From positions 9,246-41,609 of the forward strand of contig MGFD01000030.1 in assembly GCA_001791715.1 (NCBI GenBank): DNA of 32,364 nucleotides, given 5' to 3'. The notes beneath the pieces are model-generated. The model was not told where the DNA came from. It saw nothing but the letters and a program-made list of their open reading frames with translations, and did no database searches. The position numbers and the translations under genes are program-made. The stretch's first letter is position 1, and each line of letters opens with the position of its first letter. Of this stretch, positions 2,702 to 11,102 are shown in pieces. The stretch comes from Candidatus Uhrbacteria bacterium RIFOXYB2_FULL_45_11. Lineage in GTDB: Bacteria; Patescibacteriota; Patescibacteriia; UBA9934; GWF2-40-263.

Positions 2702-3535
2702 ATGAGTGAATACAATCCAGAGCGTGCACAACAAGAACGCATTGAGGCTGAACGCATGGAGTATAAAATAATCTCTCGGCGTGTTTTGAACGATCTTTTC
2801 AAAGACGTGCTTGATGCCCGTGAACTTGAAAGAAGATTGATGCTTGTTGATCGGGTAAAATTCGTTACACATGATCAGATGGATGTCATTGCAAAAAGCA
2901 ACCCGCAAGATGCGGGTGCTGACGGATTGATCCAGTATGAGGTAAGTGAATCTGAGGTTCGTCGGCTACCAATTGTTCTTCATTCTTCGTCGCGTGTAGA
3001 AACATTGCATACATTGGTGCATGAGGGCACTCATCTCATGACTCCTGAGTCTGTACTTGTTACGAACATAATAGCAGAACCGGATGAAGAAACTTTTTCA
3101 GATTATGTTGGAGGATTTCGGTTTGAACGTAACAGAAAAACAAAACAAATTGATCTGATGTCGATCCATAAAGATACACCAGCTCGTTTTCTCTTTTGGG
3201 AATCGGTTACGGATTGGATTGCGGAACTTGGACTTGAGAGTGAGATGAGTGATCAGGAGAAAGAAGAACTTGCAATGAGTGGTTACTTTGAGCGCCATTG
3301 GATCGATTACTTGATGCGTAAGTCGCCCGATGCACCTGGATTGATGCAAGCAATTAAAGAATCTTATGCAGCAGGGAGCGAAGATTCTTTACGTTGGTGC
3401 CTTCAAAAACAGTTAGATGTCCAGGATGATCATTTTTATGATGCACTTATAAAGATCATCGGACGCGATCGAACAGATGAAAAGCGGGTCGATGATTGGA
3501 TGCAAGTCGTTGATGACGCGTTTAAGTCGTCCTAA
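2702..3535 (+). CDS. hypothetical protein with an HExxH motif (putative zinc metalloprotease-like)
   Basis: 277-aa ORF containing LHTLVHEGTHLMTPE. No family recognised by eye. Confidence 0.6.
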   Translation: MSEYNPERAQQERIEAERMEYKIISRRVLNDLFKDVLDARELERRLMLVDRVKFVTHDQMDVIAKSNPQDAGADGLIQYEVSESEVRRLPIVLHSSSRVETLHTLVHEGTHLMTPESVLVTNIIAEPDEETFSDYVGGFRFERNRKTKQIDLMSIHKDTPARFLFWESVTDWIAELGLESEMSDQEKEELAMSGYFERHWIDYLMRKSPDAPGLMQAIKESYAAGSEDSLRWCLQKQLDVQDDHFYDALIKIIGRDRTDEKRVDDWMQVVDDAFKSS

Positions 3536-3583
3536 GCCTTGTTATTGGTTACGTCCTTTCAGCTTGGTTTCGCCATAAAAAAC

Positions 3584-3610
3584 ACCCAACGTAAAGCTGG
3601 GTATTTTTTT
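3584..3610 (+). terminator. rho-independent terminator
   Basis: ACCCAAC-GTAAA-GCTGGGT (one mismatch) followed by a T-run. Confidence 0.55.
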
Positions 3611-3615
3611 ATGTC

Positions 3616-3687
3616 GGAGAGTGTGAGATCGGAGGTCTCGCCCAACATCCCGCTTCGCGGTCTGTCCAAACCTTCGGTTTGGCGCCA
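3616..3687 (+). repeat. R2: copy 2 of the structured tRNA-like repeat
   Basis: Identical to R1 except for one A/G change and a 3-nt CTC indel. It ends in GCCA, and similarity to the R1 trailer continues to about 3710. Confidence 0.85.
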
Positions 3688-3729
3688 TACAAAAACACCG
3701 AACGCAAATGTTCGGTGTTTCTGTATGGC
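3684..3729. terminator. 20-bp-stem palindromic hairpin shared by convergent R2 and tRNA-Ser(UGA)
   Basis: Arms at 3684-3703 and 3710-3729 pair at 19 of 20 positions; the loop is GCAAAT. U-runs follow on both strands. The stem includes the GCCA 3' end of the tRNA. Confidence 0.7.
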
Positions 3730-3814
3730 GGAGAGGGCGAGATTCGAACTCGCGGAAGCTATTAACTTCGACAGTTTTCAAGACTGTTGCCATCAACCAC
3801 TCGGCCACCTCTCC
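3726..3814 (-). tRNA. tRNA-Ser (anticodon UGA), long variable arm, CCA encoded
   Basis: Reverse complement: GGAGAGGTGGCCGAGTGGTTGATGGCAACAGTCTTGAAAACTGTCGAAGTTAATAGCTTCCGCGAGTTCGAATCTCGCCCTCTCCGCCA. Anticodon loop CTTGAAA. Confidence 0.9.
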
Positions 3815-4058
3815 GTAAATTTTCAATGAGTCGCTTGTTTCTGAATGCCTGTCCTGAACCTGATTTGAGATATGTCTCAAATTGTCTTGCTTGAATCCTT
3901 GAGGGGAATGCGCAGTACCAAATAAGCATAACGGGCCTAAGGTTCTTTGTTGATTCTGCTTTCCCAATCTGGTGTTCTTCGAGTCTTCTTTTTAAATCTG
4001 GAGTACAACCTGTGTAGATTGAACTGTTCGATAATTTGAGAAGATAAACGTAGTACAT
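3762..4058 (-). CDS. small GIY-YIG nuclease-domain protein (YhbQ/UPF0213-like)
   Basis: MYYVYLLKLSNSSIYTGCTPDLKRRLEEHQ... from ATG 4058 (the ORF track starts at TTG 4067). The last 17 codons and the stop lie inside tRNA-Ser(UGA). Confidence 0.8.
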   Translation of the reverse strand: MYYVYLLKLSNSSIYTGCTPDLKRRLEEHQIGKAESTKNLRPVMLIWYCAFPSRIQARQFETYLKSGSGQAFRNKRLIENLRRGGRVVDGNSLENCRS

Positions 4059-4134
4059 ATTGGCCAAAGGCCACCCGAAACTTCAACAGATCATCAACTC
4101 TCTTCGCGTCACCCTTCGCCAAGGCTTCGGGTGA

Positions 4135-4179
4135 CACCCTACACTTCAACAATGGTAAACACTGTTGAAGTGTAGGGTG
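4135..4179 (-). terminator. perfect 17-bp hairpin directly after tRNA-Ser(GCU), overlapping its terminal CA
   Basis: caccctacacttcaaca (4135-4151) pairs with tgttgaagtgtagggtg (4163-4179), 17 of 17 positions, with an 11-nt loop. A second hairpin, gtcaccc/gggtgac, lies at 4108-4135. Confidence 0.6.
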
Positions 4180-4272
4180 GCGGAGAGAGAGGGATTTGAA
4201 CCCTCGCGCCGGTTTTAAAGCCGACCTAGGAGATTAGCAATCTCCCCCCTTCAGCCTCTTGGGTATCTCTCC
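4178..4272 (-). tRNA. tRNA-Ser (anticodon GCU), long variable arm, CCA encoded
   Basis: Reverse complement: GGAGAGATACCCAAGAGGCTGAAGGGGGGAGATTGCTAATCTCCTAGGTCGGCTTTAAAACCGGCGCGAGGGTTCAAATCCCTCTCTCTCCGCCA. Confidence 0.9.
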
Positions 4273-4479
4273 TTGAAGGTGCCGTCAGGATACGATATTT
4301 GAGTGAATTGGGCAAGACCTCTTTGTTTGTGCAATGTTCTGCTTTAGAAAAATGAGATTGAGTGGTATTACACTTGACTTTTCTGGGCAAATAATGATAA
4401 GAGGTGCCATTGCTCGTAGGACAAAAAGGTTCTGCTTGCAATGTGTTGCTCTTCACATGAAGAGAAAGGAAGGTGAAAC

Positions 4480-10772: not shown

Positions 10773-11102
10773 ATGGCTTGGGTATATATATTAAAAAGCG
10801 ATCTTGATGGTCGTTTTTATGTTGGAAGTACGACGGATATTGAGCGTAGAATTATTCAGCATGAACGAAATCAAACACCATCAACATATCGAATGCAGGC
10901 GCATAAACTGGTTTTCTCTCAAGAATATTCAACGCTTCGTGAAGCTCGAGAAATTGAGAGGCGACTTAAAAAACTGAAACGAAAAGATTATTTACAAAAG
11001 ATTATAAATGAGGGTTTGATTCGAATGCGACCTGGCGAGAGCCCCGACGCGCCGAATGATAAACTGTCGGCGGTCGGGGTCCCGACAATCGACAGTATTT
11101 AA
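10773..11102 (+). CDS. small GIY-YIG nuclease-domain protein
   Basis: MAWVYILKSDLDGRFYVGSTTDIERRIIQHE... The ATG lies only 8 nt after the tRNA-Arg CCA. The stop codon sits in the loop of a hairpin (arms at 11081-11094 and 11105-11119). Confidence 0.8.
   Translation: MAWVYILKSDLDGRFYVGSTTDIERRIIQHERNQTPSTYRMQAHKLVFSQEYSTLREAREIERRLKKLKRKDYLQKIINEGLIRMRPGESPDAPNDKLSAVGVPTIDSI

Follow-up and report, generated by a model that had tools for sequence, protein, structure and literature searches.

Why should a gene for a small GIY-YIG nuclease lie between two serine transfer RNA (tRNA) genes and run on into one of them? The question is raised by a locus in a stretch of 32,364 nucleotides (nt), hereafter the window, which covers positions 9246-41609 of contig C30 (MGFD01000030.1) of a metagenome-assembled genome (MAG) of an ultra-small bacterium, Candidatus Uhrbacteria (883 kb, 77% complete). 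This genome is labelled G000; other G numbers denote the genomes compared with it, L numbers the loci that were fetched and C numbers contigs. On the minus strand the locus reads tRNA-Ser(GCU), two hairpins, a GIY-YIG open reading frame (ORF) and tRNA-Ser(UGA), an order that a preliminary description had given and that ARAGORN, Rfam, Pfam and folding bear out. We argue that, very probably, positions 3822-4177 are an inserted member of a family of cassettes lodged at tRNA genes and the end of the ORF inside tRNA-Ser(UGA) goes back to the loss of a stop codon. The cassette is one copy among many of a widespread, probably selfish kind of DNA found at tRNA genes.

Layout of the locus

The two tRNA genes and the parts of the insert are given below in minus-strand order; tRNA genes were called by ARAGORN and Rfam, which agree.

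4178-4272, minus strand: intact tRNA-Ser(GCU), whose CCA end is the left border of the insert (ARAGORN, Rfam, alignment of filled and empty sites)
3822-4177, minus strand: inserted cassette, made up of leader and nuclease gene, its right border known to within about 10 nt (filled sites aligned with empty ones)
4135-4179, minus strand: hairpin A, formed by arm X (4160-4179, starting in the CA of the tRNA) and its perfect complement X' (4135-4154) (repeat search, folding, covariation)
4109-4134, minus strand: hairpin B, or H(-), TCACCC-GAA-GC-cttg-GC-GAA-GGGTGA (motif search, folding, covariation)
4070-4089, minus strand: Xm, an arm that again complements X save for a conserved mismatch of 3 nt at its centre (repeat search, covariation)
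4061-4072, minus strand: mini-hairpin GGCCtttGGCC immediately before the ATG (folding), recurring in most homologous leaders
3825-4058, minus strand: conserved 78-codon ORF of the GIY-YIG nuclease, Slx1/UPF0213-like (Pfam, homologue alignment, model)
3822-3824, minus strand: codon 79, GAA, the lost stop, which is TAA or TGA in relatives (homologue codon alignment)
3762-3821, minus strand: read-through tail and stop, the final 53 nt (3762-3814) lying within tRNA-Ser(UGA) (ORF list, sequence)
3726-3814, minus strand: intact tRNA-Ser(UGA), the native neighbour (ARAGORN, Rfam, alignment)

Filled and empty sites

Sixty related genomes were searched with a 941-nt region, and the matching loci were fetched and aligned. 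The spacer between tRNA-Ser(GCU) and tRNA-Ser(UGA) measures 363 nt in the window as opposed to 17, 19 and 17 nt in G004, G001 and G006 of the same genus, where the site reads CCA, then 17 or 19 nt, then GGAGAGG. The alignment fixes the left border exactly, the extra DNA beginning with the first base past the CCA of tRNA-Ser(GCU). The same cassette occupies the same site in G002 (same genus, 88% nt identity) and in G024 (another genus of the family, 74%), such that a single site is filled in G000, G002 and G024 and empty in G004, G001 and G006, and the empty sites carry no scars of a cassette. G035 has the two tRNAs in swapped order, UGA before GCU, and a leader with a broken ORF is again found behind tRNA-Ser(GCU). 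Since the cassette keeps this position despite the swap, it is tied to the 3' end of tRNA-Ser(GCU), and since tRNA-Ser(UGA) lies 17-19 nt from tRNA-Ser(GCU) in empty sites, it is a native neighbour only. GCU-cassette-UGA is also the layout of L006 and L025; L030 and L041 show the reverse order.

The site has been used independently as well: in G007 (L118, C3, 1087-1185) the CCA of tRNA-Ser(GCU) is followed by a spacer of 99 nt, an ORF-less leader belonging to a different cassette family, of the ttcgact...agtcgaatgccctgagcctgtcgaagggc type found in L139 and L140 at tRNA-Thr/Val. In G003 (L125, C32, about 990-1136) a leader 88-90% identical to that of the window is found away from any full tRNA gene, behind a decayed tRNA-Ser fragment that extends from T arm to CCA and followed by an unrelated ORF of 160 amino acids (aa), membrane-like, with no nuclease gene. 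Broken ORFs (the G035 copy L046, L027, L075 and L060, besides several further copies with internal stops) and the ORF-less leaders of G007 and G003 are signs of decay that fit a cycle of invasion, decay and loss.

No partial tRNA duplicate brackets the cassette at the window locus, and none is needed there because the insertion lies after the CCA. A copy of the tRNA 3' end after the ORF is likewise absent from this locus, and one of at least 10 nt is present in just eight of 52 loci of the subfamily.

Three further lines were set aside. The stretch gcgaagagagttgatgat (4090-4107), upstream of the ORF, bears a weak likeness to the 5' part of tRNA-Ser(UGA) and pairs with the acceptor strand in the fold; not being conserved in G002 or G024, it was dismissed as chance. 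Co-conversion of the tRNA flanks is unreadable, as filled and empty congeners have identical 3' parts of tRNA-Ser(GCU). Contigs assembled from the source samples yielded two joints skipping from 3814 to 4178/4180, which might have indicated polymorphism at the strain level; both joints are short-sided and of low depth, and other organisms are their probable origin.

A spacer of 76 nt between tRNA-Ser genes in G013 (L123, C1) opens after the CCA with the hairpin GTTCAA-TGA-AGCCAA ctgc TTGGCT-TGA-TTGAAC. Its design is that of the cassette hairpins (stem, 3 x 3 mismatch, stem), and there is no nuclease gene.

The nuclease gene and its lost stop codon

The ORF runs from an ATG at 4058 to a stop at 3762-3764 (98 codons), and the last 53 nt lie inside tRNA-Ser(UGA). 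The part conserved among homologues comprises 78 codons and ends at 3825, 10 nt short of the 5' end of the tRNA; the tail of 20 codons is made up of 3 codons of spacer and 17 of tRNA sequence. A length of 78 codons is also the modal one among homologues (35 of 80 loci). Codon 79 is TAA or TGA in L006, L011 (which is G024), L013, L014 and L025 and GAA in the window and G002, such that the 20-codon extension exists because one T-to-G change (TAA to GAA) removed the stop. Judged by this codon alignment, the tail into tRNA-Ser(UGA) is a derived stop loss in the lineage of the window genome and its sister G002. Thus, the preliminary description was right that the ORF reads 17 codons into tRNA-Ser(UGA) and stops at 3762-3764, but the junction with a tRNA 5' end that it saw here is a product of the stop loss, and the gene belongs to the CCA end of tRNA-Ser(GCU). 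ORFs ending inside a downstream tRNA are present in at least eight other loci (L018, L042, L065, L072, L143, L151, L160 and G002); evidently, cassettes packed tightly on tRNAs tolerate such overlaps.

The copies in the window and G002 differ by 22 synonymous and 4 non-synonymous changes (ratio of non-synonymous to synonymous rates, dN/dS, 0.03); dN/dS is 0.07 between the window and L006, and a variant contig from another groundwater run differs almost solely at third codon positions. From these comparisons the ORF is seen to be under strong purifying selection, also after the stop loss.

The overlap invites an explanation at the RNA level, in which either the tRNA precursor would be a substrate of the nuclease or translation would be coupled to tRNA maturation through the overlap of ORF and tRNA-Ser(UGA). 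Such a role would suit a gene that lies within a probable tRNA-mRNA-tRNA transcript and whose end overlaps a tRNA, as do the ends of the eight or more homologous ORFs just mentioned. However, the overlap stems from a point mutation in a stop codon and is absent from most homologues, and G004, G001 and G006 make both tRNAs without the nuclease gene. GIY-YIG enzymes, moreover, are DNA nucleases, which also counts against this explanation, and we regard it as extremely unlikely.

The protein matches the GIY-YIG family of Pfam (PF01541) over residues 1-70 with 54.1 bits (cut-off 22.6, E 2e-14), and NCBIfam and PHROGs hold no family for it. Residues V4, Y5, G17, R25, E61 and K65 are invariant in 75 homologues, and Y2, Y3, Y15 and H29 are conserved in at least 90%. 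An AlphaFold2 model built from these 75 homologues (predicted local distance difference test 97) has the alpha/beta fold of GIY-YIG domains. With this model, Foldseek retrieves the UPF0213 structure 1zg2, Slx1 (7cq3 and 6seh, template modelling score 0.70, root-mean-square deviation 2.3-2.6 Å, 32-40% identity) and, weakly, I-TevI; by sequence, the nearest solved relatives are the UPF0213 proteins BH0048 (1zg2, E 6.5e-9) and EF2693, followed by Slx1. A search of 1.84 billion cluster representatives found 332 clusters with E <= 1e-10, a number that rises to 5067 when the limit is E <= 1e-3, and the subfamily is therefore widespread.

The leader hairpins

Between the CCA of tRNA-Ser(GCU) and the ORF lies a leader of 119 nt. 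Its hairpin A is a perfect stem of 19 base pairs (bp) that includes the last two bases of the tRNA and is not followed by a T-run, and H(-) consists of 6 bp, an internal loop of GAA x GAA, 2 bp and a tetraloop. As RNA, the 135-nt leader stretch folds with -66 kcal/mol (z = -6.6), a stability that none of 200 shuffles equals; folded as DNA, the two strands reach z -7.2 and -8.0.

Homologous leaders are built from one word of about 10-20 nt and its complements. In the window Xm is complementary to 4162-4181 and also pairs with the GCCA end of the tRNA, and it is the complement of X save for the central triplet (TTC-type against TTC/TAC). The H(-) form, TCACCC-GAA-GC-loop-GC-GAA-GGGTGA, resembles the reverse complement of the hairpin X-loop-Xm, and therefore one hairpin with a GAA x GAA internal loop is possible on each DNA strand. 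The usual order of the elements is X, Xm, mini-hairpin, X', H(-), ATG, and the window shares with six relatives a permuted order, X, X', H(-), Xm, mini-hairpin, ATG. Covariation was computed on the alignment of these seven permuted leaders. X and X' are 99% paired, with 8 pairs changed on both sides; X and Xm are 86% paired, with 7 pairs changed on both sides and central columns that essentially never pair. This three-way covariation, together with the preserved mismatch, argues for a structure that is recognised rather than for a mere terminator. The type of hairpin follows the protein clade regardless of the tRNA occupied, and the sister pair L136 (Leu) and L160 (Asn), for example, both carry CCTGCCTGCCGGCAGGCAGG.

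Hairpins of the H(-) kind also occur alone. In G000 the strict pattern has three solo matches (C51:2707-2732, C64:28701-28726 and C43:9367-9387), and a fourth, degenerate copy (C37:3111-3131) fails it; all four are away from any tRNA or GIY-YIG gene, and those on C51, C64 and C37 sit between A- and T-runs in the manner of bidirectional terminators. Across 61 related genomes the motif has 52 matches as against 3 for a reversed control, and the presence of at least two solo copies goes with that of a close homologue (Fisher p 0.006, among few and related genomes).

Solo hairpins bring to mind the Ssn system of Neisseria, in which SsnA, accompanied by NTS repeats, binds an oriented hairpin, cuts adjacent single-stranded DNA (ssDNA) and modulates the uptake or recombination of transforming DNA (PMC11893778). 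By analogy, our locus might encode a site-specific ssDNA nuclease that serves its host in this way, with its cognate H(-) scattered through the genome, while the tRNA adjacency would be secondary, for example if the hairpins doubled as terminators or trailer structures. A single-domain GIY-YIG gene beside an oriented hairpin, solo copies framed by A- and T-runs elsewhere in the genome, the excess of motif matches over the control together with their link to close homologues and the strong purifying selection on the ORF would all be expected of such a system. It does not explain, however, why the leader starts exactly at the CCA, why relatives lie in tRNA loops with duplicated tRNA parts, why the cassette comes and goes among congeners or why broken and ORF-less copies exist. 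There are, moreover, only about 1-14 hairpins per genome, not hundreds, and on a tree of the proteins of the genus the window protein stands apart (31% identity, E 4e-6) from the clade with the signature 'VLYIGVTNNL...GFTxKY...NPxWxDL', which is probably the Ssn/cd10448-like one. We therefore consider a host-serving system of this kind unlikely.

Members of the 'VLYIGVTNNL' type are L134, L138, L145, L147 and L156 (in G003, G004, G006 and G007). Several copies share an in-frame stretch upstream, '...LRGGVIDDEAIF', which suggests that they have a conserved repeat of their own before the start codon.

Association with tRNA genes

A small GIY-YIG ORF with GC-rich hairpins on the same strand as an abutting intact tRNA is a pattern found well beyond the window locus. 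G000 has four GIY-YIG matches, three of them small and each abutting a same-strand tRNA (Ser, Arg, Trp); the fourth, an open frame of 471 aa, is taken to be UvrC-like from its length alone. With 25 tRNAs in 883 kb, the chance that all three small genes abut one is about 5e-7. The second of them, at 10773-11102 in the window, follows tRNA-Arg(GCG) and is itself followed by a copy of 37-48 nt of the 3' part of this tRNA, starting inside the anticodon loop. The third, on contig C11, lies on the same strand behind tRNA-Trp. At G000:C11:5413-5486, upstream of this third gene, a run of N falls exactly in the loop of a long hairpin after tRNA-Trp, whose arms cgtcgctcgcga and tcgcgagcgacgtggcagg take in the 3' end of the tRNA; the run probably marks a gap that the inverted repeat left in the assembly.

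Among 80 homologous loci, 76 have enough upstream sequence to be scored, and in 52 of these a same-strand tRNA or transfer-messenger RNA (tmRNA) gene ends 63-260 nt upstream of the ORF, 28 times tRNA-Ser (all four isoacceptors) and otherwise one of eleven other kinds (Lys, Ala, Arg, Trp, Glu, Gly, Ile, Leu, Pro, Tyr and tmRNA). Where a full tRNA is lacking (23 loci), most loci show either a CCA-ending tRNA 3' fragment just before the leader or a contig end. On the other side, a same-strand tRNA begins within 60 nt of the stop in 18 loci, often after 1-5 nt. Within the genus, the six congeners surveyed have 33 small GIY-YIG ORFs in all, of which 14 lie next to a tRNA on the same strand (binomial p about 1e-20); a congener genome has between 1 and 10 small GIY-YIG genes. 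Adjacency is clustered on the protein tree of the genus (3 label changes versus 12.3 in shuffles, 0 of 500), whose YhbQ-like and 'VLYIGVTNNL' clades never adjoin tRNAs. The association with tRNAs is a property of particular clades, not of all small GIY-YIG proteins.

Other tRNA-adjacent clades of the genus place the ORF before an intact tRNA, preceded by a duplicate of the 5' part of this tRNA and a GC-rich hairpin. In L136 (Leu) and L160 (Asn) the duplicate breaks off within the D-loop; in L128 (Lys), L151 (Glu) and L143 (Ser-CGA) it does so within the anticodon loop. At tRNA-Arg(GCG) of G001 (L132, C55), an intact tRNA and a GIY-YIG ORF are accompanied by two partial copies of the tRNA that are broken by the same 40-nt hairpin, one in the D-loop and the other in the T-loop. 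The insertion points seen, i.e. D-loop, anticodon loop, T-loop and the position after the CCA, are all unpaired parts of the cloverleaf.

These surveys bear out part of what the preliminary description had proposed. Its judgement that the joining of both GIY-YIG genes of the window to tRNA genes is no coincidence is upheld by the three small genes of G000, and the junction that it placed at a tRNA 3' end stands for the Arg gene. The survey and the protein tree that it called for, as well as the comparison of occupied and vacant sites, all agree with it, and neither an absence of tRNA association elsewhere in the genome nor a stable synteny among relatives, which would have spoken against it, was found. 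It had suggested a mobile or a processing role in association with tRNAs; mobility is the best reading in view of the empty and filled sites and the family pattern, whereas nothing points to processing. Its extension of the association to the whole family of small nucleases does not hold, given the clades that are never beside tRNAs.

On a tree of 76 proteins the identity of the upstream tRNA is clustered (17 changes versus 21.6, 0 of 300 shuffles), as is Ser against all others (9 changes versus 16.3, 0 of 300 shuffles). For host phylum, the 52 rows require 33 changes, and the copies from Uhrbacteria lie scattered over the tree. The pattern fits a spread between hosts that is faithful to the site. 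A transfer across phyla, as read from record titles, had to be rejected in part: L011, labelled 'Gammaproteobacteria', is contig C3 of G024, from the same family as the window genome. With labels of this kind wrong, cross-phylum transfer is less certain than the titles suggest. Records L009, L010, L014 and others are third-party annotation (TPA) MAG records titled 'uncultured Gammaproteobacteria' with loci of the type seen in the Candidate Phyla Radiation (CPR), and the organism labels of such records are no basis for claiming a transfer between phyla.

It is conceivable that no mobility is involved and that the gene is a passenger, a small UPF0213-like repair nuclease that sits behind tRNAs in order to borrow their strong promoters and that is lost repeatedly in shrinking genomes. 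The closest solved relatives are indeed UPF0213 proteins, a consensus scan detects no promoter of its own, selection on the ORF is strongly purifying and the window genome and G002 share both the copy and the stop loss by descent. Yet a stationary gene would hardly have homologues at more than 20 tRNA species and tmRNA or copy numbers that vary as they do among congeners, nor does it account for the different cassette family at the same tRNA site in G007, the almost identical leader that in G003 accompanies a tRNA fragment at a non-tRNA locus, the duplicated tRNA halves in relatives or empty sites that are free of scars. We deem a passenger very unlikely.

How the cassette might move

A more appealing scenario is that the locus holds a compact mobile cassette of hairpins and nuclease that lodges in tRNA genes, which we consider likely. 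The cassette inserted behind the CCA of tRNA-Ser(GCU), inside what was formerly an operon of two tRNAs, and, apparently having no promoter of its own, would be transcribed from that of the tRNA. Its mode of spread may be that of a free-standing homing-endonuclease gene. The nuclease, if it acts as Ssn and Slx1 do, could recognise and cut folded DNA, namely the mismatch hairpins of its own leader, the unpaired parts that a tRNA gene exposes when extruded as ssDNA, or both, and repair from a copy that bears the cassette would then install the cassette at the cut site. Highly conserved tRNA sequence on one or both sides could serve as portable homology arms, and the window flanks would be good arms of this sort because both are conserved tRNAs. 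That it is the cassette's own nuclease which drives its mobility is a serious possibility, and judging from the sequence comparisons we stop just short of calling it probable.

Several observations weigh against mobility, or at least against this account of it. Mobility is read from comparative patterns alone. The modal protein of 78 aa is a catalytic domain alone, without a DNA-binding domain, unlike characterised homing endonucleases. The intact tRNA, which is the presumed target, stays beside the cassette, and the classic immunity of an occupied site is therefore missing. The exact base at which the insert ends on the right cannot be told, and with tRNA 3'-end copies in only those eight loci, a right-hand homology arm is doubtful unless a tRNA follows. 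The patchy distribution could stem in part from losses. The 76-protein tree has 79 alignment columns and many forks that are not resolved, and the organism labels that NCBI gives to several MAGs are unreliable. Finally, the association of solo hairpins with close homologues is suggestive only.

A bolder version of the mobile cassette would have the 78-residue Slx1-like nuclease and about 120 nt of mismatch hairpins form a self-sufficient mobile element that needs neither integrase nor transposase. We offer it tentatively, as a possibility that we would not bet on. The nuclease would cut in the loops and after the CCA, where the displaced strand of a heavily transcribed tRNA gene folds into its cloverleaf. 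Near-universal tRNA sequence would then be target and portable arm at once, which might allow the element to cross between distant ultra-small bacteria, and solo hairpins would be footprints of the element that have been reused as terminators.

Neighbouring features

Three further features flank the locus.

4287-4315, minus strand: promoter-like TTGCCC, 17 nt, TATCCT, 14 nt upstream of tRNA-Ser(GCU) (alignment read by eye)
3683-3730, minus strand: terminator-like hairpin of 21 bp with a T-run after tRNA-Ser(UGA) (repeat search, sequence)
3612-3665, minus strand: decayed 3' part of a tRNA-Ser, comprising variable arm, T arm and acceptor (duplicate search), better preserved in G004

When the alignment is read by eye, G000, G002, G004, G001, G007, G024 and G013 all retain the promoter-like pattern TTG(ccc/att)-17-TA(tccT/agcT/ttcT/tctT), and the element at 4287-4315 is a probable start of a transcript that spans tRNA, cassette and tRNA. 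A consensus scan listed no promoter on the minus strand, the leader included, and hence not the element found by eye either. The decayed tRNA-Ser part lies about 60 nt past tRNA-Ser(UGA), is followed by a second terminator-like hairpin (3571-3616) and is possibly a tRNA end displaced by an older cassette or event.

A direct repeat of about 100 nt, about 90% identical, is present at 2556-2665 and 3610-3709 (both on the minus strand) and brackets an ORF of 277 aa (2702-3535) that matches no Pfam family. The repeat contains the 3' arm of a terminator hairpin, a CCAAACCGAAGGTTTGG hairpin and a decayed 3' part of tRNA-Ser. Since in G002 this decayed tRNA part directly precedes a DHFR/RibD_C-like gene, which in the window lies further on, the 277-aa gene may be a separate insertion with att-like repeats.

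Significance

If its 78-residue nuclease is what moves the cassette, the latter would rank with the smallest autonomous mobile elements known, and its mobility would suggest a route by which genes move between streamlined CPR genomes that lack most of the classical machinery of mobile elements. If the nuclease is specific for a structure or hairpin, such a miniature enzyme would, like the Ssn enzymes, have practical uses of interest. For annotation, cassettes of this kind explain a common source of odd calls in CPR genomes, namely ORFs that overlap tRNAs, orphan tRNA fragments, tRNA operons with long hairpin spacers and 'GIY-YIG family proteins' whose N-termini are inflated. As a test case the locus is clean: its left border is exact, the site is empty in three genomes of the genus, and both a sister copy and a natural variant that has lost its stop are available. 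What it adds is an account of a tRNA overlap by stop loss, a three-way covarying leader in permuted order, solo leaders and hairpins, tRNA adjacency that is specific to clades within one genus and a separation from the probable Ssn-like clade.

Comparison with known systems

A literature search found no published description of GIY-YIG cassettes lodged in bacterial tRNA genes, and a survey of horizontal transfer in the CPR lists a GIY-YIG protein among the genes transferred out of Patescibacteria (PMC12455944). The cassette shares features with several known systems. Islands borne by integrases also insert at tRNA or tmRNA genes and duplicate or restore the tRNA end such that the tRNA remains functional, a duplication which the Arg cassette of the window and many relatives show. 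Unlike these islands, however, the cassette has no integrase or other recombinase, it measures about 0.35 kb rather than kilobases, and its relatives also insert in D-, anticodon and T-loops. Elements of the insertion sequence (IS) families IS200/IS605 and the repetitive extragenic palindromes (REP) with their associated transposases (RAYT) are likewise small, end in imperfect hairpins and leave solo hairpins dispersed, but they employ HUH (Y1) transposases that form covalent intermediates, whereas a GIY-YIG hydrolase cannot rejoin DNA alone.

The best matches of the window protein in both sequence and fold are UPF0213/YhbQ and Slx1. Slx1 is a structure-specific nuclease, which fits a recognition of hairpins or branched DNA, but it has a RING domain and needs Slx4, and the YhbQ-like genes of the genus form a separate clade (starred, 96) away from tRNAs. 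Ssn resembles the cassette in that a small single-domain GIY-YIG protein is flanked by an oriented hairpin that recurs in the genome, here H(-) and its solo copies, whereas the hairpin of the cassette differs in sequence and its copy numbers are small. The Ssn study notes an IS-like NTS-ssnA-NTS layout and does not mention tRNA (PMC11893778).

The nearest functional precedent is SegB of phage T4, a GIY-YIG homing endonuclease encoded in a tRNA cluster; its recognition site contains the conserved T-psi-C stem-loop motif of tRNA genes, and SegB drives its own inheritance into genomes lacking SegB (PMC2330249). SegB is a multi-domain phage protein that cuts double-stranded DNA, whereas the window protein is a bare catalytic domain of 78 residues and is encoded on bacterial chromosomes; the cassette, moreover, always comes with a hairpin leader starting at the CCA of the tRNA, to which relatives add duplicated tRNA parts. 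Common to both is a GIY-YIG gene between tRNA genes, and the polymorphism of the cassette for presence and absence fits the same style of life.

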